This document shows, piece by piece, positions 1 to 38,377 of a stretch of 64,000 bases of DNA. Source of the stretch: Clostridia bacterium (GTDB lineage: Bacteria > Bacillota > Clostridia > Christensenellales > CAG-138); assembly GCA_017435905.1 (NCBI GenBank), contig JAFSEB010000047.1, positions 5,062 through 69,061 on the forward strand, read 5' to 3'. The position numbers were made by a program, and so were the translations under genes. Within the stretch, counting starts at the first letter, position 1. Each line of letters opens with the position of its first letter. The notes below the pieces were generated by a model. It did no database searches. It had not been told where the DNA came from and saw only the letters and a program-made list of their open reading frames with translations.

Positions 1-26
1 TCGATTTTCTGAAAGCCGCCGAGCTC

Positions 27-1265
27 ATGTACGTTCATCCGGAATTGACAAACTGTCCTCATTGCAACCGACACGCAAGTGTTATCCAGGATTTTATGTG
101 GAGTTGTCCGGAATGTCATAAGTACGGCGATGTGGTGGACTACGTTATGGCACTGGAGCATCTGGATTCAGAATGGGTTGCCATTAAACGCATCTGCCGC
201 ACTTTGCAAATCAAAGTTACCACCCTGGATGTCATCCACGCCGACGAGCTGATGGACAAGCAATTTGAAAACACCGGCGCACTGATTGATGGCTTCATCG
301 GGCGCGGTGTGTATCTACTCGCAGGCTCTCCCAAGATCGGCAAGTCATGGCTGGTGCTCTGGCTTGCTCACAGAGTTTGCCTCGGAGAAGATGTGTGGGA
401 ATTTAAGTCCAGACAGTGCGACGTTCTCTACATCAGCCTCGAAGATCCCGAGCGGCGCATCCAGTCCCGTGTGGCAGAAATCACCCGCGGTGAAACCGGC
501 AACCTCTGGTTCGCTACCGAAACCGAACTCATGGGTAGAGGCTTCGAAGAGCAGATCTCTGGATTTCTTTTTGAACACCCTTCCGTAAAATTCATCATCG
601 TGGACACGCTGCAGAAAGTCCGTCAGCTTCGCGCTGACCAATACAGCTACGCCGGGGATTACGAGGTCATCACCCAAATGAAATCCCTGGCCGACCGCTT
701 CGGCATTACAATCCTTCTCGTCCACCACACGCGCAAGGCAGGAGCCGCCGATCCCTTCTCCATGATCTCCGGCACAACCGGTCTCAGCGGCGGCGTGGAC
801 GGCTCGCTGGTGATGATCAAAGATGAACGCATGGATAACCGGGCAAAGCTCTATATCACCGGCCGTGACACACTGGATATGGAGATGGAGCTCATCTTTG
901 ACCGTGCATCTTCCACCTGGCAATTCCTCGGATACGGAGGCAAAGAGCGCGTCCAAAAACGGGATCGTTTGCTCAGCGAGGTGAATGACTTTCTCACCGA
1001 TGAAGGTCAATTCCACGGAACCGCATCCGAGTTGCTGACGATCCTTTCGGCCAGAACAGAATTGCAGATCAAGTCAGCAAATGCTCTGACTCGATTGCTC
1101 AATCCGCAGAAATCCATGCTTCAGTACGAGTACGGAATCCTCTACAATTTTGAAAGAACCGGCAAGGAGCGCACCCTGCATCTGACGCGAATCATCAATG
1201 ACGATAGTGACGATACCCTGACCCCCGGTAAAGATACCGTCACTATCGTCACAGAGCAAAAATGA
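27..1265 (+). CDS. Zn-finger + RecA/DnaB-like (RepA/AAA_25-type) replication ATPase of the mobile element (primase-helicase-like)
   Basis: N-terminal four-Cys motif CPHC..(15)..CPEC..GDVVDYV resembles the DnaG/CHC2 zinc finger. Walker A GSPKIGKS, Walker B-like KFIIVDTL, and the LLVHHTRK motif typical of the RepA/AAA_25 family are present. The frame stays open upstream to nt 3, so the true start may lie outside the window. Confidence 0.75.
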   Translation: MYVHPELTNCPHCNRHASVIQDFMWSCPECHKYGDVVDYVMALEHLDSEWVAIKRICRTLQIKVTTLDVIHADELMDKQFENTGALIDGFIGRGVYLLAGSPKIGKSWLVLWLAHRVCLGEDVWEFKSRQCDVLYISLEDPERRIQSRVAEITRGETGNLWFATETELMGRGFEEQISGFLFEHPSVKFIIVDTLQKVRQLRADQYSYAGDYEVITQMKSLADRFGITILLVHHTRKAGAADPFSMISGTTGLSGGVDGSLVMIKDERMDNRAKLYITGRDTLDMEMELIFDRASSTWQFLGYGGKERVQKRDRLLSEVNDFLTDEGQFHGTASELLTILSARTELQIKSANALTRLLNPQKSMLQYEYGILYNFERTGKERTLHLTRIINDDSDDTLTPGKDTVTIVTEQK

Positions 1266-1292
1266 GCCGATGCCACCATCGGCATCGGCTCA
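1263..1292. terminator. Shared convergent terminator hairpin
   Basis: Perfect 12-bp stem TGAGCCGATGCC / GGCATCGGCTCA with a 6-nt loop. On the minus strand it is followed by TTTTTGC, closing the 2692->1309 operon. It overlaps the stop codon of the plus-strand ATPase gene. Confidence 0.6.
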
Positions 1293-1308
1293 TCATAAAA
1301 TTAGATTT

Positions 1309-1896
1309 TCAATCTGTAGTTTGTTCTTCTCCCAGAGCACCTACACTTTCATACTCTTCTTGTCCAGCACCTCTATGAACCTGATTAATGTGAATGAGTT
1401 CTTGCATTACACCAATAATGCGCTTAGAGTAAATAACTTTTACAATCAGTTCCTCAAGCTCAGCACGCGTATTGCACTTGATAATATAACCAGCATCAGA
1501 CTCCGAATAAACATCGTCAGCGATATGCTGCTCGAGAATAACATTTACAGGATAATTGCTAATGCCGTACTGCAAATAGCAAACCCTGTACTTGTAACTC
1601 GGATAGGCAGGAGTGCTCAAATAGAACTCGTATTTGTGTTTTTCTTCCCCCTGCTTTCCCAAAGTTGTTTGAATATCGACTCTCTTCTCGACAGTTCCTA
1701 ACGCTGCAGATAATCCTGCTAATCCCGATTGTGTATAAGAATATACATGTCCAGAAAAAGTTGCTACTTTTCCCTGAACGATATTATTTGTTTCGTCCGC
1801 AATCTGATTTGCGATCTCCTCGACAACAGTATTTGGTGCCGTCAGATCAATATCGGCAAAATTCAGTTTGCTCGAAAGGTCAATTTTCGTTCCCAT
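1309..1896 (-). CDS. Hypothetical 195-aa protein, translationally coupled partner of the EEP enzyme
   Basis: ATG at 1896 is preceded by AAGGAGG with a 6-nt spacer and lies inside the last codons of the upstream gene (17-nt overlap). No TM segment, signal peptide or motif I recognise; acidic C-terminus. The longer 202-aa ORF start at 1917 lacks an RBS. Confidence 0.6.
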   Translation of the reverse strand: MGTKIDLSSKLNFADIDLTAPNTVVEEIANQIADETNNIVQGKVATFSGHVYSYTQSGLAGLSAALGTVEKRVDIQTTLGKQGEEKHKYEFYLSTPAYPSYKYRVCYLQYGISNYPVNVILEQHIADDVYSESDAGYIIKCNTRAELEELIVKVIYSKRIIGVMQELIHINQVHRGAGQEEYESVGALGEEQTTD

Positions 1897-2692
1897 GACA
1901 AACCTCCTTAATTTCAAAAACGATTGGAAAATGGTCGCTTATGTCCTCGTTCGGATATCCCTTATCAGTCAAAAACGAATGCGATTGCGTTTCAGTTATT
2001 ATTTTCAACTGATCTTTTGTGAAACGGTCATATAGTACAGGTCTAATCAAAACCTGATCATAAATATTCCAGAACACATTTCCAATCTGGTTTCCACTAT
2101 AAAAATGTGTCCCATACGGCTGTTTAAAGTCCCCCAAGAAGTTCCACATAGGATTGTAAAACATCTTAAACTCTTCGTCACCAACTACACGAGATTTTCT
2201 ACTCGCAACACTGTATGTAGGAATACCATGGAACATATCCGCGTCAATGCACCCTTCGTCAAAAGGATTGACATTAAAATCTCCAACAACAATCGTATTC
2301 TCAGTATTCAACGCCGCTTCAAGTTGGTTGATATCTGAAATTATTCTCCCAATTACCACGCGCCTCATTCCAGCACCTTGTGAATAAATCTGACTTGGTA
2401 AATGAACACAGCACAGAATATCTATTTTATTAATGACCTGCATTGATGCGTACTTCGATTGAGGGCCAGGCTCAACATTTAAAACAGATCCTAAAACAGT
2501 TATACGATCACAACCTGTTGCCATGTACCTACGCATTAGGATTCCTTTGTCGGATAACAAGGCAATCAGTTGATCAGCGTTAGCGGTATACTCCGCTAAT
2601 ACAACCATTGAAATCTCGTTCTCAACAATAACATCAAGAAGCACTGAATTGATATTATTATTTTTATGGGTATTCCAAAACAGCACTTTCAT
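1880..2692 (-). CDS. Endonuclease/exonuclease/phosphatase (EEP; DNase I/ExoIII fold) family protein, 270 aa
   Basis: All EEP landmark motifs occur in the correct order: FWNTH (beta1 Asn), VVLAE (Glu), CVHLP, VVGDFNVN (Asp/Asn), YDQVLI (Asp), ISDHFPI (Asp-His). GAGGA RBS lies 6 nt before the ATG. No signal peptide or TM. Confidence 0.75.
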   Translation of the reverse strand: MKVLFWNTHKNNNINSVLLDVIVENEISMVVLAEYTANADQLIALLSDKGILMRRYMATGCDRITVLGSVLNVEPGPQSKYASMQVINKIDILCCVHLPSQIYSQGAGMRRVVIGRIISDINQLEAALNTENTIVVGDFNVNPFDEGCIDADMFHGIPTYSVASRKSRVVGDEEFKMFYNPMWNFLGDFKQPYGTHFYSGNQIGNVFWNIYDQVLIRPVLYDRFTKDQLKIITETQSHSFLTDKGYPNEDISDHFPIVFEIKEVCHGNEN

Positions 2693-2735
2693 AATGCTTC
2701 CTCTTTTTCAACACAGGCGAAAAACTTACAAAATA

Positions 2736-2764
2736 ATTATAGCTCAAAACCTTTACAAACACAA
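2736..2764 (-). promoter_or_regulatory. Putative sigma-A promoter of the EEP cassette
   Basis: The minus strand reads TTGTGT-17 nt-TATAAT (perfect -10), about 40 nt upstream of the EEP start codon. Confidence 0.45.
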
Positions 2765-2956
2765 GCTCAGATAGATGGATGCATAACAAGGCACAGAACA
2801 GAAAAGCCTGTCGCAGTATTTAGTATTGATCATCGATAGTTCATTCTCCCCATTTTTAAAATTTCTCCCTCCCAGCGGTTCAACCCACTTCAAAAAACCA
2901 CAAGGTTATGTTAAGCTATAAATGCGAAACGCCTTGTACCAGAGAAAGGAGTACAA

Positions 2957-4120
2957 TTGGCAAAAAGAAGATCTAACGGCGAAGGAACACTTCGCCAGCG
3001 TCCCAACGGACTTTGGGAACTGACCCTCATGGACGGCTTCCAGAGTGACGGCAGACGCAAATATAAAAGTTTCTACGCAAAAACCCAGAAAGAAGTAAAA
3101 CAAAAGGCCCGGGCGTACCAGGACGCCAAGGCCGAGGGCATTGAGGTTGATGTGGTCTACTACTTCGACGAGTGGGCCGATCTGTGGTTCGAGAGCCACA
3201 AGGACAACATCATGCCCACCACACAGGAAAATTATCAATACACGCTGCGTATCCTCAAGGCCGCGTTCCCTCACAAGAAGATCCGCGACATCAAACCCTT
3301 TGACATTGAAATGATGCTCAAGAAGCTGCGCCGTGATGGGCGCTCCACTTCCTGCCTCACCCAATGCAGAGGCATGATGTATCAGATCATGAACAAGGCC
3401 GAGGCCAACGATCTCATCCGCAAGAACCCGGTGCGCTTCGCAGAAAAGATGCGATACCGCGAACCGGTGAAACGGAAGGATGCGTTCACGGCAGAAGAAG
3501 TCTCCATCCTCATGGAACGACTTCCCGAAAATCGCATCGGCCTCAGCATCCGTCTGATGCTGGGCACCGGCATGAGAACGCAGGAGCTCTTGGCCCTGGA
3601 ACCGCGCCACATCGAAACGGACGGCTCTCACATCCGCATTGAACAGGCCATCAATATGCAGAAAGGAACTGCGGTGGTCGGCTTACCCAAATCCCGGGAT
3701 AGCTACCGAACCATTCCCGTTCCTCAAAGTCTGCGATGGTGTGCTGTGGCTCTGAGGCAGACGGAGAAGAAGTTTGTCTGGGAGGAACGGAAGAAGGACA
3801 ATCCCTGCAATCCCTCTCACTTCCGCGATCAGTTCCGCAAGGCACTGGAAGCCATCCCGGAAGTTCCAACCCTCACGCCCCATTCCTGCCGACATACTTA
3901 CGTCTCGCAGATGCAAGCATTGGGTGTGGATCTCTCCACCATCCAGAGCATTGTGGGTCACGCCGATGTGGATATGACGCAGCATTACCTCCACGTACAG
4001 GAATCCATCCGACTGGATGCCATCGATCGGTTCAGCAAAGCCTTTCCAACAGGCCGCAGCGGACCGGATGATCCGGACGGAACTACCTGCGGGGTCATTC
4101 AATTCCCCAATGTGGGATGA
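2957..4120 (+). CDS. int: Site-specific tyrosine recombinase / phage-type integrase
   Basis: R..K..HxxR..H/Y catalytic pattern: GTGMRTQELLAL, LPKSRDSYRTIPV, TPHSCRHTYVS, GHADVDMTQHYLH. N-terminal MAKRRSNGEG is typical of ICE/IME integrases. TTG start with AAAGGAG RBS 5 nt upstream. Confidence 0.9.
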   Translation: MAKRRSNGEGTLRQRPNGLWELTLMDGFQSDGRRKYKSFYAKTQKEVKQKARAYQDAKAEGIEVDVVYYFDEWADLWFESHKDNIMPTTQENYQYTLRILKAAFPHKKIRDIKPFDIEMMLKKLRRDGRSTSCLTQCRGMMYQIMNKAEANDLIRKNPVRFAEKMRYREPVKRKDAFTAEEVSILMERLPENRIGLSIRLMLGTGMRTQELLALEPRHIETDGSHIRIEQAINMQKGTAVVGLPKSRDSYRTIPVPQSLRWCAVALRQTEKKFVWEERKKDNPCNPSHFRDQFRKALEAIPEVPTLTPHSCRHTYVSQMQALGVDLSTIQSIVGHADVDMTQHYLHVQESIRLDAIDRFSKAFPTGRSGPDDPDGTTCGVIQFPNVG

Positions 4121-4153
4121 TGTGACGCCCTGTCCAGAGTGTGCCATTGTAAT

Positions 4154-4204
4154 TCTGGTACGAACTCTGGTACGTAAAGTTCCGCGGAAAGCAAGTGTTC
4201 CGCG
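4154..4204 (+). repeat. Two pairs of short direct repeats between int and the att core (candidate integrase arm-type sites)
   Basis: TCTGGTACG at 4154-4162 and 4166-4174. GTTCCGCG at 4179-4186 and 4197-4204. Confidence 0.45.
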
Positions 4205-4254
4205 ACTTCTTGAATAAATGCGACAGAATGGACAAAAACGGCAGATTTCAGACG

Positions 4255-4290
4255 AAAAAAGACCTGAAATCTTACGATTTCAGGTCTTTC
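4255..4290 (-). terminator. Rho-independent terminator directly downstream of the tRNA-like 3' end
   Basis: Stem AGACCTGAAATC / GATTTCAGGTCT (12 bp, loop TTAC). On the minus strand it is followed by TTTTTTCG. It also lies ~135 nt after the int stop on the plus strand. Confidence 0.7.
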
Positions 4291-4335
4291 TGGTGGAGAT
4301 AAGCGGGATCGAACCGCTGACCTCTTGAATGCCAT
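4291..4335 (-). other. tRNA-Ala(GGC) 3' half (anticodon loop to CCA), att-site-like fragment, not an intact tRNA
   Basis: Minus strand reads ATGGCAT(loop, anticodon GGC)-TCAAG-AGGTC-AGCGG-TTCGATC-CCGCT-TATCTCC-A-CCA. The acceptor 3' strand implies G3:U70. The expected 5' anticodon-stem strand and everything upstream are absent. Confidence 0.6.
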
Positions 4336-4360
4336 CGGATTTTTGAGACATTCTTCAATT

Positions 4361-5317
4361 TCAGTACATAATGATCGCCCGGACAGGGCAAACGGGCGTG
4401 CAGTAGCCGCAGGTGAGGCACACGTTGTGGTCGACCTCGGCAAGACCGGTTTGGTTGTAAAAGATCGCACTGTTGGGGCAGGCCGCTTTGCAGGCGCCGC
4501 AGCCTTCGCAATCCTCCTGATTGATGTAGATCTTCTTTTTCGAAATATCCGGATTGTAATCCGCTGCCATCGTGCCGTCAAGGTAGGCAAGAATATCATC
4601 GATCTCCTCGGTTTTTCCGAAGCCGATCATAACAGAATCGATCTCCGGTTTCGAAAACACATAATCAAGCGCCTGCCGGTAATGTCCGGTAAGGTTTCCG
4701 CCACCGAAGGCTTTCATGGAAAAGATGCCCTTCCCCGCCCTTTTGCATGCGCCGATGGCTTCCATCATTTCATCCGCAGAGGCAAAACGGTTTCCGCTGC
4801 GAATACCAAGCCCTGCATAGTTGATCAGCGGAAATACCACGTCGAGCTCCTCCATCCTCGCTGCCGCTGCCGTTATATCCACATGGTGGGTGGAAAGACC
4901 GATGGCTTTTACAAGCCCACGGGACCGTGCATCCTTCAGCGCCCCCCATGCGCCCGCACGCTCTTCAAGCTGCCCGGACCGTACCTCATGCATCAAAAAG
5001 ATATCGATCGCATCCCGTTTCAGCGTCTGCCTTGCTTCCTCTATCGCTTCCATCATCCCGGCATAGTCGGCACTCAAAGATTTGGAGCAAATAACCACAT
5101 CATCAAATCCCCCATTTTCCAGCGCCTTTACGATATACGGATAAGCCTGATAATACTGTGCGGTATCAATAAAGTTGATACCGTTCTTTAGCGCATACCG
5201 AACGACCCTCGCCCCTGCGTCCACACTCAGCGCAAGCTGTGCAGGTCCGATCGGAAGCACGCCAAAACCAACAGCGCTTACTTTGATACCGGTTTTTCCC
5301 AATTCGTTCTTTTTCAT
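4361..5317 (-). CDS. Aldo/keto reductase with C-terminal 2x[4Fe-4S] ferredoxin domain
   Basis: N-terminal LGKTGIKVSAVGFG AKR pattern. C-terminal CEGCGACKAACP and CLTCGYCTPVCP motifs. Start chosen at MKKNELG (GGGA 6 nt upstream); the ORF is open to 5368. Confidence 0.85.
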   Translation of the reverse strand: MKKNELGKTGIKVSAVGFGVLPIGPAQLALSVDAGARVVRYALKNGINFIDTAQYYQAYPYIVKALENGGFDDVVICSKSLSADYAGMMEAIEEARQTLKRDAIDIFLMHEVRSGQLEERAGAWGALKDARSRGLVKAIGLSTHHVDITAAAARMEELDVVFPLINYAGLGIRSGNRFASADEMMEAIGACKRAGKGIFSMKAFGGGNLTGHYRQALDYVFSKPEIDSVMIGFGKTEEIDDILAYLDGTMAADYNPDISKKKIYINQEDCEGCGACKAACPNSAIFYNQTGLAEVDHNVCLTCGYCTPVCPVRAIIMY

Positions 5318-5524
5318 TTTCATTCCCGTTTTCTTTTTTGCCGTATACTGCCGGCGGATCCACATCATATTTGCAGTGTTGACAACAAAAATTATAGCAC
5401 TAATCTTCTCTCATTTCCATGCGGTTCACCGATCGTTATACCGCATTTTCATCAGCACTCGCATTTCCCACGGCAAAAGAGTATACTTTTTTTACAGAAT
5501 ACCAACAGAAGGAGGATGCTGAAT

Positions 5525-5734
5525 ATGCAAAAAATCATTCGCAATGCAATCCGCTGCAATATTTGCAATGAGGTCATCGAATCGAAACGTGTGCACGAAT
5601 ATAAAGTCTGCAGCTGTGGCGCCTGCGGTGTGGACGGAGGTCACGAATATCTGCGGCGGACATTCCGTGAGAAAGGCTGTTTTACCGAATTATCCGTCAC
5701 AGAAGTGCCGGAGGAAAACGTCGAACAGCATTGA
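5525..5734 (+). CDS. Small four-Cys zinc-ribbon protein (69 aa)
   Basis: CNICNEV...CSCGACGV motifs. AGGAGG RBS 9 nt upstream of the ATG at 5525. Confidence 0.5.
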   Translation: MQKIIRNAIRCNICNEVIESKRVHEYKVCSCGACGVDGGHEYLRRTFREKGCFTELSVTEVPEENVEQH

Positions 5735-5788
5735 AAAGCGAGCAATATGAAAGAGCCTTCGCAGGAAGGCTCTTTCGATTATTTCGGT

Positions 5789-6640
5789 TTATTCCGCGAT
5801 GCCGCAGACGCCGAAGCCGCCGGGGCCGCAATGCGTGGTAACAACGCCGCCTGTCGGGATCCAAAGGATCTCCCTGAAACCCATTTTTTCTGCCATTGCC
5901 TGTGCATTTTTGCGGATGCTGTCTTTCAGGCCCTTGGAATACACAAACGCAATGATCTCTTTTTTGAAATGATTGGCTTCCGGGAACTCCTGCAGAAGTT
6001 CAAGCGCAACACGATCCATCTTGCCGCGATACTTTTTCGTTGCTTTCAGAAAACCGCCCTGCAGCTCGATCAACGGGTTCAAAGAAAGGATCTTTGCGCC
6101 AAGGTAAGCTGCGTTGCTGACACGGCCGCCTGCACGCAGGTAAGCAAGATCGCCGGGGAAAAAGCCCATCCGCACCTGCTTGCATATCTCATGCACTTTT
6201 GCAATAACTTCTTCATGCGGTGCATCGGGGTTCGCTTCAAGATAACGGGCGACCAGGATCAGCACGAGTGACTGCCCTGCGGAAACATGTCCCGTATCGA
6301 TGCTGGTGATATTCTTCCTGCCCTCAGCCGCCAGGATCGCACTCTGATAGGAACAAGTCGTTACGGCAGAGTAAGCAAGATGCAGAATATGCCTGTCAGG
6401 ATATGCACTTTGGATCTCGTCAAAGACTTTTACGAAATCTTCCACGGTGCTGCCGCTGGTTTTTGTCAGGATCTTGGTGTTTTCAAAAAAGGAATAAATA
6501 TCTTCAACCGGAAAGGTGCCGTCATCCCGTGTTTCATCGCCAAAGGTCACGTGCATGGGAACGGTAACGATCCCGTATTGCTGCGCAAATGCGGCAGGGA
6601 TATCGGAACCGGTCTCTGCCAGCAGAATGTACTTGTTCAT
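5789..6640 (-). CDS. DegV family fatty-acid-binding protein
   Basis: Collinear with the DegV family (LLAETGSDIP..., TSGSTVEDF, GPGGFGV C-terminus). AGGAGA RBS before MNKYILL. Confidence 0.85.
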   Translation of the reverse strand: MNKYILLAETGSDIPAAFAQQYGIVTVPMHVTFGDETRDDGTFPVEDIYSFFENTKILTKTSGSTVEDFVKVFDEIQSAYPDRHILHLAYSAVTTCSYQSAILAAEGRKNITSIDTGHVSAGQSLVLILVARYLEANPDAPHEEVIAKVHEICKQVRMGFFPGDLAYLRAGGRVSNAAYLGAKILSLNPLIELQGGFLKATKKYRGKMDRVALELLQEFPEANHFKKEIIAFVYSKGLKDSIRKNAQAMAEKMGFREILWIPTGGVVTTHCGPGGFGVCGIAE

Positions 6641-6746
6641 TTCTTTCTCCTGTTCAACGGTAATCGGTATGCATCCATGCGAATTTATCATCTGTTATAT
6701 TAAAAAACAATGCATGATACAGAGAGTATGCTATTCAGAAAAGAGA

Positions 6747-6779
6747 ATTCCGAACTCTACCAATGGTAGAGTTCGGAAT
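6747..6779. repeat. 33-bp perfect palindrome / hairpin in the divergent degV-exonuclease intergenic region
   Basis: ATTCCGAACTCTACCA-A-TGGTAGAGTTCGGAAT. On the minus strand it is followed by TCTCTTTTCT, about 100 nt upstream of the degV start. Confidence 0.5.
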
Positions 6780-7027
6780 AATGCCTGTTTTTCTTGATTT
6801 TTCTGCATTTTATCTTTTTAACAGCCTTTTTCTGTTTTTTCCTGTCAAAGAATCATCGATGCATTTTTATCATCAGATGCCAAATATTCAGCCGATTGCC
6901 CGACAGTTTTCCCATCCATTTTCCATCCTTTTTTCAGCAAAGTCTTTCCCTTTTCGTCAGAATGTGAGAGAATAAAACAATGGAAGACAGGCGGTCAGCC
7001 GCTGAAACTTATCGCAGGAGTAAAACC

Positions 7028-7678
7028 ATGGGCAGCTTTGTGGTCATTGATCTTGAAATGTGCATCATTCCCAAAGGGGCAGGAAGAAAGATATACCCGT
7101 GGTACGGGGAGATCATTCAAATCGGTGCTGCCCTGCTCAATGACCGCTATGAAACGGTGGATACCTTCAAAACTTATGTATCGCCCGAATACGGCTCTAT
7201 TGACCGCTACATCGAAGCGCTGACCGGCATCACCAACGAGGATACCCGTTTTGCCCCACCCATTCGGCAGGCGCTTTCCGCTTTCATGCAATGGGTACCC
7301 CATGATTCTGTTTTCGTTTCCTGGAGCAATGCCGACAAGATGCAGCTTGAAAACGAAACAGCATGCAAGAATATTGATGTTCCGATGCTGCAGCAGTATC
7401 TTGATACATGGATCGATTGTCAGCAGCTTTTTGCAGAAGTCATGGATTCAAAGAAGCAGTATGGGCTGACGGATGCATTGATCATTGCAGACATCGATTA
7501 TGAAGAGCATGCGCACGATGCACTGGTGGATGCATGCAACACAGCAAAGCTGTTTGCGAAAATAAAGCGTGAGCCTGATATGCAGCTCAATCCCCTGTAT
7601 TGCAGCGAAGAAAATGCGGTTTCAGCCGTACACAACCCGTTTGCAGCGCTAAAGAACGCTAACCTGTCGGATAACTGA
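7028..7678 (+). CDS. DEDDh 3'-5' exonuclease (DnaQ/epsilon-like domain protein)
   Basis: Exo I VVIDLEM, Exo II SWSNADKMQL, Exo III HDALVDACN. AGGAG RBS 7 nt before the ATG at 7028. Confidence 0.8.
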   Translation: MGSFVVIDLEMCIIPKGAGRKIYPWYGEIIQIGAALLNDRYETVDTFKTYVSPEYGSIDRYIEALTGITNEDTRFAPPIRQALSAFMQWVPHDSVFVSWSNADKMQLENETACKNIDVPMLQQYLDTWIDCQQLFAEVMDSKKQYGLTDALIIADIDYEEHAHDALVDACNTAKLFAKIKREPDMQLNPLYCSEENAVSAVHNPFAALKNANLSDN

Positions 7679-7704
7679 TCGGCACGTTTGAAAGGAGAAC
7701 AGCC

Positions 7705-8568
7705 ATGGAAAGCAGCCTCCGTCCCAAAATTGCAATTTGCTACGACTTTGATAAAACGCTTTCCCCCGATGATATGCAGACCTTTACGCTCATCCCCTCT
7801 TTCGGGATCGATAAGGCTGTATTTTGGGATGCCTCCAACAAACTTGCGGTAGAAAACCGCATGGACAAAAACCTTGCCTGGATGTATGAACTGATCCGCT
7901 TCTCAAACTTTAACGACCGGTCCCTCCACCGGGATTATTTTCGGCAGGCAGGCGCAGATGTACCGCTTTACAGCGGCGTGACAGCGTGGTTTGATGCCGT
8001 AAACGCCTATGCCGGTCAATGCGGCATCGATGTGGAGCACTATATCATCTCCTCCGGGCTGAAGGAGATCATTGAGGGCAGCCCTATTGCCCATCACTTC
8101 GAAAGGATCTACGCCTCCTCCTACTATTACAATGCGGATGATGTGGCTGTATGGCCGGCACAGGCCATCAACTACACCAACAAAACGCAGTATATTTTCC
8201 GCATTGCAAAGGGCTTTCTTGAAGAATACGATGACCGTGTCAACGACAGCATGCCGGAGGGCGATCTTCGTATCCCCTACGAAAACATCGTCTATATCGG
8301 CGACAGCGAAACGGATATTCCCTGCATGCGCCTTGTTAAAAGCAAGGGCGGTTATTCCATCGGCGTCTTTGATCCCATCAAAAACAACCGCAGCCGTGTC
8401 CACCAGCTATTCAACGATGACAGGATCGATTTTTACGCACCTGCGGATTATACGGAAACCGGCGAGCTGTTCGGCTTCATGCGCAAGATCATTTGCGATG
8501 TCGCCGCAAAGGAACAGATCAAGGCGGAAAAAGAGCGGCTTTCCCTTCAGGCGAAAGGGTTGCTGTAA
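7705..8568 (+). CDS. HAD-superfamily hydrolase-like protein
   Basis: Motif I CYDFDKTL (DxDxT) and motif IV YIGDSETDIPCM. GAAAGGAG RBS. Confidence 0.7.
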   Translation: MESSLRPKIAICYDFDKTLSPDDMQTFTLIPSFGIDKAVFWDASNKLAVENRMDKNLAWMYELIRFSNFNDRSLHRDYFRQAGADVPLYSGVTAWFDAVNAYAGQCGIDVEHYIISSGLKEIIEGSPIAHHFERIYASSYYYNADDVAVWPAQAINYTNKTQYIFRIAKGFLEEYDDRVNDSMPEGDLRIPYENIVYIGDSETDIPCMRLVKSKGGYSIGVFDPIKNNRSRVHQLFNDDRIDFYAPADYTETGELFGFMRKIICDVAAKEQIKAEKERLSLQAKGLL

Positions 8569-8651
8569 AACACGGTCTATTTAAGCGCAATTTCAAAAGC
8601 CCCGGCAATAGCCGGGTATTCGTAAAACAGTAATATCTCAAAATACGGAGA

Positions 8652-8690
8652 AACGATGCTGAGTTAACTCAGGCATCGTTCCTTTTTATA
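8652..8690 (+). terminator. Rho-independent terminator after the exonuclease/HAD pair
   Basis: AACGATGCTGAG-TTAA-CTCAGGCATCGTT (one bulge), followed by CCTTTTTATATTTTT. Confidence 0.6.
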
Positions 8691-8768
8691 TTTTTCTGAA
8701 AAGTGTAACCTCACAACCCTAAACGGTGCTTATTAGGGTGAAGGCCTTTCAATACGGAAAGAAAGGAG

Positions 8769-9338
8769 ATGAAAGCCTTGGACGATAACAGAATCGTTGA
8801 ATTATATTTGCTGCGTGATGAAACAGCAATCAAGCAAACTACTGAAAATTATGGCAGCCGCTTGCGCTCGTTGGCGTATGGAATTGTCGGAGACCCGCAG
8901 ACAGCCGAAGAATGCGAAAACGATACTTACATGGAAGCGTGGAACACGATTCCACCCCATGAGCCAAGAAGCTATTTGTATGCGTTCCTCGCTCGGATCA
9001 CCCGTCACATTTCTTTGAACTGCTGCCGTGACCGCAGCCGATTGAAACGCAGCGCATTTATATGTGAACTCAGCGCAGAGATGGAGCAGTGTATTCCTGT
9101 CCCCGATGATGCCCAGTGCCGCATGGATGATATGGCGTTGAGCGATGCAATCAACGGATTTCTCAGTAAACTGGATGAGGAAAAAAGGAATATTTTTGTT
9201 CGCCGGTATTGGTATCTGGATTCCGTGGCTGCCATTTCCAAACGCTTTGCTTTATCTGAAAGCAAAGTGAAAACTACGCTCTTTCGTTGCCGTACCGGGC
9301 TTCGGGAGTATCTTGAAAAGGAGGGTTACACTTTATGA
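8769..9338 (+). CDS. RNA polymerase sigma-70 factor, ECF-type
   Basis: Region 2 (EDTYMEAW-like: ECENDTYMEAWNTIP) and region 4 HTH (VAAISKRFALSESKVKTTLFRCR). The start is ambiguous: the ATG at 8769 abuts GGAG, while TTG at 8778 has better spacing. Confidence 0.85.
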   Translation: MKALDDNRIVELYLLRDETAIKQTTENYGSRLRSLAYGIVGDPQTAEECENDTYMEAWNTIPPHEPRSYLYAFLARITRHISLNCCRDRSRLKRSAFICELSAEMEQCIPVPDDAQCRMDDMALSDAINGFLSKLDEEKRNIFVRRYWYLDSVAAISKRFALSESKVKTTLFRCRTGLREYLEKEGYTL

Positions 9339-10549
9339 GAGGAAATGAATTTTTAGATAAGATGGAGCTTATTGATCCTGCCTATGTTGAAGCGGCAGAC
9401 GCTACGCCGAAAAAGAAAAAAAGTGTTGGGGTTAAATGGGGAGCCGTTGCTGCCTGTTTTGCGTTGATGATTTTTGCAGGGACAAGGATTTTGCCACAAG
9501 ATGAGCCGGGACTAAACTCTGATCTGCCTATGCTATCGATTTCTGAAAACACAGCAGCAATGGGATATGAGGGATATATGGCTTATGATATTTCAGAACT
9601 TATAAATGCCAATCCTTGGAATGAAGATTCTGAGATATCCACACTGCCCGTTTATCAAAATTCTTTAACCTATGACGCAAACTTTATTGTATCGGGGGCG
9701 GATTTTGATAAGATGCAGGAGTTTATATTGGATGTTGCCGGGAGATTGGGACTTGATACAAATAACTTGACTATCACCGACAATGCGCCAGACGAAGAAT
9801 CTCAACAGAAGATAATTGAAAAGTTCCAAAGTGTAGGAGATGCTGTTCCATATGGATACTTTGACCCGACAAAATTGATCATTGACGCAGATGGAATAAA
9901 AATCGAAGTTGATCAATCTATGACAGCAAAAGTATCTTTCGATCCCGCAGTACAGCTTCCCGAAGAATATAACTTTACGCACTTTGCATCCTATGATGAT
10001 AAGATTGCCGTAGCTGAATATTTGAAAATCAAATACGAAGATTTTATCGGCATTGGTAACCCACAAGCGAATATATATGGCGGCGACTATAACATTTACA
10101 ATCAACAGATGTATTCCATCGAGTTTTTTAATGCAAACGGAAGCGAAATCGAGCAACTTATCAATTACAATTTCAATCGAGTGACTTTCGGTTGCGATGA
10201 TGAAGGCAAGCTGTTTATAGCAAGAGTATATCAGCCCGATTTGTCTGTCAAAATTGGAGATTATCCAATTATTAACTCGGAGCAGGCAAAAGAGTTGTTG
10301 TTAAATGGTAATTACATTACCACAGTTCCCTATGAAATTTCTAAAAAAAAGTTTATCAAAAAAGTGGAACTCATTTACCGTACAGGTGAACATGAAGGAT
10401 GTTTTATGCCTTACTACCGTTTCTATGTAGAACTGCCAGAAGATGAGCGGGAGAACGGACTGAAAACCTACGGAGCATATTATGTTCCTGCCGTGGAAAG
10501 TTCCTATATTTCCAATATGCCAGTATGGGACGGAAGTTTCAACAAGTAA
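9335..10549 (+). CDS. Putative anti-sigma factor / single-pass membrane protein
   Basis: ATGA overlap with the sigma gene. N-terminal cytoplasmic segment, a KKKK stretch, then a TM helix (WGAVAACFALMIFAG) and a ~330-aa extracytoplasmic domain. Confidence 0.6.
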   Translation: MRGNEFLDKMELIDPAYVEAADATPKKKKSVGVKWGAVAACFALMIFAGTRILPQDEPGLNSDLPMLSISENTAAMGYEGYMAYDISELINANPWNEDSEISTLPVYQNSLTYDANFIVSGADFDKMQEFILDVAGRLGLDTNNLTITDNAPDEESQQKIIEKFQSVGDAVPYGYFDPTKLIIDADGIKIEVDQSMTAKVSFDPAVQLPEEYNFTHFASYDDKIAVAEYLKIKYEDFIGIGNPQANIYGGDYNIYNQQMYSIEFFNANGSEIEQLINYNFNRVTFGCDDEGKLFIARVYQPDLSVKIGDYPIINSEQAKELLLNGNYITTVPYEISKKKFIKKVELIYRTGEHEGCFMPYYRFYVELPEDERENGLKTYGAYYVPAVESSYISNMPVWDGSFNK

Positions 10550-10630
10550 ACGAAACCGAAGAAATCCCTTTGGAACAAAGGGCGCACTTCTATACAGGGG
10601 CAAGCCCTGTATGTGCGCTCTGCGAGGCAG

Positions 10631-10663
10631 ACAGCCCGGACGATTGAAGTCCGGGCTGTTTTG
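10631..10663 (+). terminator. Rho-independent terminator downstream of the anti-sigma gene
   Basis: ACAGCCCGGAC-GATTGAA-GTCCGGGCTGT followed by TTT. Confidence 0.6.
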
Positions 10664-10847
10664 CGTCACTCCGTTCCGAACAAGGGGCTGCACCCCTTGC
10701 GCCGCTTTGCGGCTATCCCAAAGAGAAACCTCTGCACGAATAGCTTCGTACAGAGGTTTAACTGTTTTATGGACGCCGCCGATACTGCCGGGGTTTTTTC
10801 TATTTCACATGCTGTTTCACAGGGCTTATTTCCTTTGTGCCGCTGTT

Positions 10848-37270: not shown

Positions 37271-38377
37271 TCACCGCTGCTTCTCCCCTGCCCCGAATAC
37301 ATCCTCATATGTGGAATATGCGCCTCTTCCGTGAGCGATCTCCTTCGCTTCCGAAAGAACGCTTTCCACAGCCGGCCTTACCTTCGCCTGCCGTTTTTTG
37401 AATTCGGAAAGCAGTTCATCCCCGGTAAAACCCTCTTCGATCAGTTCGGCCAAAATCTGTTCCGCGAATTCGCCTTCTGCATCGCTTTGCACCGGTGCGG
37501 CGTCAGGTTCCTCCGGATCCGGCACGGCTTGCACAGGTTCAGCAGTAATCATGCCCTCTCCTGTCTTTTCCATATATTCTTTAAGATAGCAACATGCTTC
37601 GTAGTAGAAATCAATACTACCGTTAAGCTCGTTATTTATTTCCGTAAACTTTTTTACTACTTCTTCTACACGTTCTTCTTCGTATAGTTTTTCCACAAGT
37701 ATAACATCAATAATAAAGCAAATTTTATAGAACCATTCTTCATCGGACTTAATTCCGTAAATAAGCTTTTCGGCAGCCCTTTCAGCCTCCTTGAGCAGCT
37801 TTACAAAAAGTGAATTTTTGTTTATTTCTCTTGCTTTATACACCGTCTTTATTGCTTTAATATACCAGAAAACAGCATCAATAATCTTGCTGTCTATCTC
37901 AACTTCCCGAATATGTTTTTTTATTTCCACACCGTTAAATGTAGCAAACCAGTAATCACCTTTGGTCATTCCACCGTCCGGATTAAGAACCCGTCCGCCA
38001 TACTTGCCAAGCATGATTCCATCCCAATATTCTTTGTCTACAAATGGTCTCGGCAAATAGATCGCTTCTCTCTTATAGTATTCGTACTGGTTTTGAAGAG
38101 ATCTTGACCTGTCACATTCTTCTTTATCATATATTTTGATACTCTTGGATGGATCAATATCGAATTTGCATCTATAGTATCCGTTCCGAATCTCCTGATT
38201 GAAGTACCAAGAATTGACAATCCTATCCCATACAAGCTCGGTAATTTTATGGTTCATGTATGCTTTGTAAATCCAGAAAGGGACCCAGATCACCAAGATG
38301 CCGATGAGCAGCGCTTCCACCATGCTTGGCTCATTTCCAAGAATGATATCCCCGATACCTAATCCTACATTCATCAT
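37271..38377 (-). CDS. Orphan 368-aa protein with an N-terminal membrane anchor (AT-rich, no recognisable domain)
   Basis: Long uninterrupted ORF with an RBS (GGATGGTG 5 nt upstream) and a hydrophobic N-terminus (EALLIGILVIWVPFWIY). The K/E/Y-rich body is followed by an acidic/Pro-rich linker and a C-terminal tail of higher GC. Confidence 0.6.
   Translation of the reverse strand: MMNVGLGIGDIILGNEPSMVEALLIGILVIWVPFWIYKAYMNHKITELVWDRIVNSWYFNQEIRNGYYRCKFDIDPSKSIKIYDKEECDRSRSLQNQYEYYKREAIYLPRPFVDKEYWDGIMLGKYGGRVLNPDGGMTKGDYWFATFNGVEIKKHIREVEIDSKIIDAVFWYIKAIKTVYKAREINKNSLFVKLLKEAERAAEKLIYGIKSDEEWFYKICFIIDVILVEKLYEEERVEEVVKKFTEINNELNGSIDFYYEACCYLKEYMEKTGEGMITAEPVQAVPDPEEPDAAPVQSDAEGEFAEQILAELIEEGFTGDELLSEFKKRQAKVRPAVESVLSEAKEIAHGRGAYSTYEDVFGAGEKQR

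Follow-up and report, generated by a model that had tools for sequence, protein, structure and literature searches.

A mobile two-gene cassette coupling an EEP-fold phosphodiesterase to an unannotated acidic partner is a candidate anti-phage module

The abortive-infection proteins PrrC and RloC each combine an anticodon RNase with an ATPase in one polypeptide. Many toxin-antitoxin (TA) modules are themselves defensive, so that readings of a small nuclease operon as an addiction system and as a defence system overlap. The substrates of the EEP superfamily, to which DNase I and ExoIII belong, extend beyond DNA to RNA, lipids, inositol phosphates and protein-DNA adducts; to our knowledge, no prokaryotic defence system has so far been reported to use this fold as an active effector. 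The locus described here is a pair of minus-strand genes in a 64,000-nucleotide stretch of a Clostridia bacterium metagenome-assembled genome (MAG; GenBank assembly GCA_017435905.1, contig JAFSEB010000047.1, positions 5,062 to 69,061 of the forward strand), referred to below as the window. The first gene (1880..2692; MBQ7113679.1) encodes a cytoplasmic EEP-fold (DNase I/ExoIII-like) phosphodiesterase of 270 residues, the predicted effector, and the second (1309..1896; MBQ7113678.1) an acidic partner of 195 residues from an unannotated family, predicted to act as a regulator, either as an inhibitor or as a sensor. The reading that we favour, with slightly more confidence than doubt, is that this cassette is a self-contained, horizontally mobile anti-phage or abortive-infection module of TA-like design. 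The original prediction, made from the sequence of the window, had proposed an effector (EEP) plus sensor/antitoxin pair as a candidate defence module, and the pairing, co-divergence and neighbours of its relatives lend support to that proposal; a defence phenotype or toxicity of the pair is what genomic context suggests.

The new searches indicate, first of all, that the two genes belong together. A partner profile run against one genome per species (185,579 genomes) recovered 22 loci, all of them in gut or rumen Clostridia-type MAGs, and in 20 of these the EEP gene immediately precedes the partner gene in the same orientation, the other two being a contig edge and a remnant. The converse search of metagenome contigs with an EEP profile gave at least 558 loci; the partner stands directly downstream in 77 of the 80 best, and the remaining three leave less than 400 nucleotides (nt) of room. 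Gaps in these 77 metagenome pairs range from -10 to +33 nt, except at loci L085 and L090, in which the partner reads as frameshifted, and across more than 100 related loci the spacing is nearly always between -17 and +33 nt. As such, the co-occurrence on which the original prediction depended is found as an adjacent, same-strand, near-overlapping pair essentially wherever there is room for both genes.

This arrangement reaches well beyond close relatives, since it is kept in prophages and plasmids down to about 29% EEP identity. In a viral-contig collection, the EEP profile found 27 loci at 25-47% identity, nearly all of them followed within about 15 nt by a small open reading frame (ORF) of 125-197 residues, and a deep partner profile is significant for 21 of these small ORFs (E 1e-9 to 1e-52). 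Among plasmid records, the ORF after the EEP gene matches the partner profile in a Bacillus cereus plasmid and in a Clostridium estertheticum phage-plasmid. Across the prophage-like contigs and these two plasmids, the EEPs whose downstream ORF proved homologous to the partner stand at 29-39% identity. Only beside the most distant, Acinetobacter-type EEPs could the downstream gene not be related to the partner. The two proteins, furthermore, diverge together: the pairwise identities of 79 non-redundant pairs correlate with a Mantel r of 0.94, a value reached by none of 999 permutations, and the partner is the faster of the two, at 36% identity against 47% for the EEP at the far end. No third gene is common to the loci, the commonest neighbour cluster occurring in 14 of 88. 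Taken together, the EEP gene and its partner form an autonomous unit of two genes whose members move together.

Two proteins considered as natural fusions of enzyme and partner were rejected, both being deletion chimeras of the two genes. Specifically, P0244 retains no more than the N-terminal ~93 residues of the EEP and thus lacks most of the enzyme, its catalytic core included, and in P0343 the C-terminal SDH active-site motif of the enzyme is gone.

Adjacent, co-transcribed and co-evolving genes are likewise among the features of a type II TA system, and the same data must be weighed for a plain addiction module of type II-like design, which would stabilise mobile elements and R-M (restriction-modification) operons and have no anti-phage role. 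A coupled two-gene cassette that travels on integrative elements, plasmids and prophages, whose two proteins co-diverge and whose enzyme half is found broken while the partner persists, would fit such a module. The order of the genes, with the enzyme first, fits it poorly, as does a partner that, like its 111 examined relatives, has none of the helix-turn-helix (HTH), ribbon-helix-helix (RHH) or AbrB domains of type II antitoxins, and to find the pair time and again within type I R-M operons and defence islands is more in keeping with defence cargo. We consider plain addiction unlikely.

The broken loci deserve a closer description. In Thomasclavelia spiroformis (loci L032-L034, positions 6257-8600), an insertion sequence with an rve-family transposase cuts the EEP gene down to a 132-residue remnant next to an intact partner, an arrangement seen in many samples, and at locus L011 the EEP gene is truncated and the partner again intact. 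Loss of the enzyme with retention of the partner is what one would predict were the enzyme the dangerous product of the two. The chimeras P0244 and P0343, in which parts of the active site are gone, point the same way, but all of this is only a hint in that direction.

The structural analysis of protein 1 offers a framework for what this enzyme might be. With 38 homologues as input, AlphaFold2 gave a confident model (pLDDT 87.5, pTM 0.88), which has the four-layer alpha/beta sandwich of the EEP superfamily. Foldseek returned 178 matches in the Protein Data Bank (PDB) at E <= 0.001, and among the matches listed the top 50 are all EEP structures; the best of them, namely NExo, ExoIII, APE1, Mth212, DNase I, LINE-1 EN, TDP2 and EEPD1, have E values around 1e-9, a probability of 1.00 and TM scores of 0.5-0.6, at sequence identities of 11-16%. 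The catalytic landmarks that had been read from the sequence as intact are indeed all in place: an ordered set of eight residues (N7, E34, H97, D138, N140, D212, D253 and H254) is present and conserved in 105 relatives, 79 of them close and non-redundant and 26 distant, the exceptions being a gap at N7 in two distant sequences and a single D253N. This invariance indicates that the enzyme is under selection for catalysis. A YNPxW segment, equally invariant in the 105 relatives, is specific to the family.

Against Pfam PF03372, protein 1 scores 20.0 bits (E = 6.5e-4), below the gathering threshold of 24.5, so that it is the structure model and the motifs, and not Pfam, which support calling it an EEP enzyme; precomputed PF03372 or PF19580 matches, likewise, cover a minority of its homologues. 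Protein 1 is a member of a divergent EEP subfamily that the PF03372 model misses. In an NCBIfam scan, the Xth and ExoIII models went unmatched and no family was assigned, the best scores being 13 bits for MnuA (185 needed) and 9 for PRK05421 (144 needed). By its modelled fold and its active site, protein 1 belongs to the EEP superfamily, outside every curated EEP family tested.

These comparisons bear directly on whether the cassette might encode a housekeeping DNA-repair enzyme, such as an Xth-like AP endonuclease or 3' phosphatase, together with an accessory factor. ExoIII, NExo and APE1 are indeed among the nearest structures. The identity to them is no higher than 11-16%, however, the Xth and ExoIII models of NCBIfam go unmatched, and H97 presumably stands where APE1-type enzymes carry Tyr and DNase I has a second catalytic His. 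H97 and H254 may accordingly represent the two-histidine arrangement of DNase I and not the tyrosine of APE1. A repair role is also difficult to reconcile with so sporadic a distribution (22 loci among the 185,579 species genomes), with the foreign base composition of the cassette and with the fact that mobile elements and defence islands carry the pair, and we regard such a role as extremely improbable. Overall, protein 1 most resembles the DNA-acting members of the superfamily, and its substrate is probably DNA.

The partner has been harder to place. The original prediction had found no motif in it that could be assigned, and scans of Pfam, NCBIfam, PADLOC and PHROGs came to the same result; a PDB sequence search with both shallow and deep profiles gave no match either. 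When 1.84 billion representatives were searched with a profile built from 40 close homologues, 596 (50% clustering) fell within the family at E <= 0.001, nearly all of them single-domain proteins of 160-200 residues, and a third homology search with a deep alignment returned the same close family without added names or taxa. Across 111 diverse relatives there is no shared Pfam or PADLOC match: the Pfam scan yielded only five single-member, chance-level matches, and the PADLOC scan only scattered single ones, also at chance level. Profile-profile comparison found the partner and EEP families to be unrelated to each other. One partner homologue, P0332 (376 residues), has a C-terminal extension of about 190 residues with no obvious relation to either the partner or the EEP.

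The AlphaFold2 model of the partner is of moderate confidence (pLDDT 74) and comprises an N-terminal helix, an antiparallel sheet, C-terminal helices and an unstructured acidic tail, with a low-confidence stretch at residues 53-83. Foldseek searches with this model were counted as giving no match (best E 0.2 in the PDB and 2.8e-3 in BFVD, TM < 0.3), with the proviso that a model of this quality, disordered at 53-83, may have let a fold relative escape. This disordered stretch includes the conserved DIQxxLG loop (residues 74-80), in which Q76, L79 and G80 belong to the motif that the family conserves most. Conservation combined with predicted disorder would be typical of a segment that takes up its fold upon binding a partner.

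The genomic neighbourhoods of related pairs provide the link to defence. The commonest neighbours are HsdR directly after the partner and HsdM plus HsdS directly before the EEP. Specifically, in no fewer than 20 of 88 loci and 3 separate lineages (L112 at 3037-10800, L029-L031, L152-L154 and L098-L117), close homologues of the pair occupy exactly the interval from hsdS to hsdR and are transcribed in the direction of these type I R-M genes; two of the lineages, including Anaerotignum lactatifermentans, are additional to the one with the commonest neighbours. An integrative mobilizable element beside guaA, with integrase, NikA-like, AAA_25, Mob_Pre and TnpV genes, carries the pair in some copies; the cargo of this element consists of AbiEi/AbiEii, two EcoRI-type methylases, GmrSD-HNH and the pair. 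In T. spiroformis, the pair adjoins Hachiman (HamA plus helicase), GmrSD and AbiH. Elsewhere it lies beside Eco47II restriction and C5 methylase genes, a CAP12/Pycsar-type TIR protein or PDC-S34; the TIR protein (289 residues; PF10137, E = 1.7e-38) is directly upstream at L098 (5116-5985) and at four related loci. The B. cereus plasmid pair is near DUF4365, RelA/SpoT and SIR2 genes, and distant pairs in prophages are found near the integrase, upstream of the terminase or near the tape-measure gene. The original prediction had asked whether homologues are enriched near known defence genes, and the neighbourhoods speak in favour: the pair repeatedly turns up beside or inside defence systems, and integrative elements, prophages and plasmids all carry it. 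The link to defence and to mobile DNA is clear, if qualitative, and at this level the pair has the guilt-by-association profile of a candidate defence system. On one prophage-like contig, a distant pair is followed by a DUF4062 protein (L119, 9548-10504; E = 6e-29) and then by the terminase.

The placement inside R-M operons suggests a more specific role, that of a PrrC-like guard of type I R-M, whose nuclease would be freed when a phage anti-restriction protein disables the R-M enzyme. PrrC is known to occupy such a slot, and the co-directional insertion between hsdS and hsdR in several separate lineages is what a guard of this kind would show. The copy in the window and many others, however, have no adjacent type I R-M genes, which implies that the module must also act alone, and we judge a guard role distinctly unlikely. 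A broader version of the idea, in which a new NTPase-free immune module would keep an EEP-fold DNase under the control of a protein of unplaced fold and serve as a second line that fires, PrrC-like, when phages disarm type I restriction, is in our view unlikely as well, if a little less so.

The neighbourhoods also allow a reading in which the pair serves the mobile element or phage itself, by degrading host or competitor DNA, by aiding packaging or replication, or by excluding superinfecting elements. Distant relatives in prophages, upstream of the terminase or after the integrase, are compatible with this, as is the copy in the window, which lies between replication and integrase genes. The close relatives in chromosomal R-M operons, without phage or packaging genes, weigh against it, and the variable prophage position (integrase, terminase or tape-measure) fits accessory moron genes better than a fixed core function. 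A service to the carrier is, on balance, very improbable. A packaging-nuclease role in particular, suggested by the position before the terminase, was rejected because close relatives stand in R-M operons that have no phage genes.

The available data are compatible with a model of an anti-phage module in which the EEP enzyme would be the effector that damages nucleic acid, probably DNA. The partner would be co-produced stoichiometrically through translational coupling, and would bind the enzyme and hold it inactive or restrict its target. Infection would then disturb the complex, upon which the nuclease would attack phage DNA, host DNA or both. We infer that the two proteins interact physically; the partner could be an antitoxin or inhibitor, or alternatively a sensor or specificity subunit.

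Several observations weigh against this anti-phage model. The context association is qualitative only, and in one lineage (L035-L037) the pair has ordinary chromosomal neighbours. With 195 residues, the partner is large for a type II antitoxin, it is encoded second, and it lacks a recognisable DNA-binding domain of the kind usual in such antitoxins. The net charge and isoelectric point (pI) of the two proteins (the partner has a pI of 4.9, and protein 1 is also acidic) do not discriminate between the models and give no hint of a DNA-mimic inhibitor. Given the wide substrate range of EEP enzymes, the fold alone does not fix the substrate of protein 1. Finally, there are two possible cases of the reverse decay: at L085 (880-1309) and L090 (700-1400), the partner reads as frameshifted near codon 50 and the EEP is intact, although these contigs count as low-coverage (very low, at 1.28, for L085, with no value given for L090), sequencing error and pseudogene are indistinguishable, and neither case can be scored.

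In the window itself, the layout of the cassette favours joint expression. The ORF coordinates (2692->1880 and 1896->1309) confirm the 17-nt overlap that had been reported, and the ribosome-binding site AAGGAGG (minus strand, 1903..1909) lies, as had also been noted, 6 nt before the ATG of gene 2 at 1896, inside the last codons of gene 1. Gene 1 has a ribosome-binding site of its own, GAGGA at ~2703-2699. The overlap and the position of the second site suggest that the two genes are translationally coupled and obligately co-expressed. The cassette ends, again in line with the original prediction, at an intrinsic terminator on the minus strand (1261..1294), with a strong stem of 15 pairs, 8 of them G-C, a 4-nt loop and a T-run; it stands between convergent genes, both of which could use it.

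The promoter proposed for the cassette fared less well. The elements of TTGTGT-17-TATAAT (minus strand, 2736..2764; -35 at 2764-2759, -10 at 2741-2736) are present as written and the -10 is perfect, but the -35 is weak, with 3 of 6 consensus positions, and a consensus promoter scan does not list the site, returning 5 promoter-like sites where shuffled sequences lead one to expect 5.1. It is a plausible promoter, not a demonstrated one. An imperfect 16-nt direct repeat (2703-2718 and 2751-2766; 75% identical, 48 nt apart) covers the -35 candidate as well as the 5' leader of the EEP gene, and could be an operator pair or a chance occurrence; no convincing operator palindrome was found upstream of the cassette. 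An Rfam scan of window positions 1-5000 found no RNA elements, which argues against an RNA antitoxin.

Base composition sets the cassette apart from its surroundings. Its GC content is 38.9%, with 0.35-0.37 at third codon positions (GC3), compared to 54.6% for the integrase gene, 52.4% for the AAA_25 replication gene and 52.6% for the whole 64-kb window, of which it forms the lowest-GC 1.5-kb stretch (bottom 0.3% of windows). The claim that the cassette is AT-rich relative to its carrier genes is upheld, but a sampled line of 62%, taken to represent the core chromosome, was unrepresentative, given that the rest of the window stands at 52.9%. The difference between 38.9% and 52.6% points to a foreign origin of the cassette. 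The window holds two further AT-rich patches. At 9335-10549 (GC 0.36-0.41), directly after an ECF-type sigma factor gene (8769-9338), a 404-residue ORF without a Pfam match on record has one hydrophobic N-terminal segment and is possibly an anti-sigma factor; at 37271-38377 on the minus strand (GC ~0.41), a 368-residue ORF has an acidic C-terminal half.

The carrier appears to be a small integrative element. A tyrosine integrase (plus strand, 2957..4120; PF00589, E = 1.2e-22) is transcribed divergently from the cassette, a layout repeated on contigs L023 and L025, and on the other side lies an AAA_25/RadA-DnaB-like replication protein (plus strand, 27..1265; PF13481, E = 9e-25), whose gene is clipped by the start of the window and encodes 436 residues when complete (L023, L024). 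Contigs with an identical pair supply the rest of the element, namely an HTH_17 excisionase-like gene, an Xre-type regulator, an AbiL-like ATPase and a DUF3226 protein. The latter two, which on L024 (5345-7161) lie beyond the left edge of the window, are an AAA_15/AAA_21 ATPase of 361 residues and a protein of 244 residues that match the PADLOC candidate system PDC-M38 (E = 4.5e-120 and 3.5e-90), which makes the small integrative element a multi-system defence carrier. No att repeat common to the integrase end and contig L024 was found, and no tRNA gene nearby.

If the favoured anti-phage reading is correct, an active EEP-fold nuclease would join the effector folds of bacterial immunity, and an unannotated partner family of ~600 clusters at 50% identity would gain a function. 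A compact, ATPase-free cassette of 1.4 kb would, furthermore, become available for studying how a nuclease is kept latent and released. The recurrent placement between hsdS and hsdR would allow the idea of layered defence linked to restriction-modification to be put to the test. The family occurs mainly in Clostridia of the gut and rumen, a group with few validated defence systems.

How new is the pair in relation to known systems? Neither protein matches any of the 5027 models of PADLOC-DB 2.0.0 (2023), a check that the original prediction had proposed, and the partner falls in no characterised family; the open-access full-text literature yielded no defence or TA system built from an EEP and a small partner. 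The pair is undescribed only in the sense that this 2023 defence database and the open-access literature searched do not contain it. With the EEP nucleases ExoIII/Xth, NExo, APE1, Mth212, DNase I, LINE-1 EN and TDP2, protein 1 shares the predicted fold and the ordered catalytic set, but it is only 11-16% identical to them, falls below the PF03372 threshold and outside NCBIfam families, has a YNPxW segment of its own and always comes with a dedicated downstream partner; we know of no such partner for enzymes of the ExoIII, APE1 or DNase I type. PrrC, RloC and other abortive-infection genes embedded in hsd operons have in common with many close homologues of the pair the hsdS-hsdR slot and with the pair a predicted latent nuclease; the pair differs in that it comprises two genes, lacks an NTPase, has an enzyme of EEP fold whose target is probably DNA, and also occurs far from hsd.

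With TA-like defence modules and nuclease-inhibitor pairs such as AbiE, DarTG, colicin DNase-Im and barnase-barstar, the pair has in common a coupled two-gene operon with co-diverging products, an enzyme half that is the first to decay, and mobility and association with defence islands; it is unrelated to them in sequence or structure, and its partner has no known antitoxin or immunity fold. The PADLOC PDC-S/M series, represented by PDC-M38 on the same element and PDC-S34 beside a homologue, rests on the same type of evidence, namely conserved gene sets with an enrichment in defence islands, but neither protein of the pair matches the models of that series. The only EEP domain within a defence system found in the literature searched is that of ArmC of ARMADA type II (PMC12458937, PMC13463889). 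That domain is predicted to be inactive and is part of a fusion with a YprA helicase, within a system of four genes, in contrast to which protein 1 stands alone and has an intact active site. As such, a compact nuclease-effector accessory module in defence islands is a familiar theme, and it is the composition of this one that is unfamiliar.

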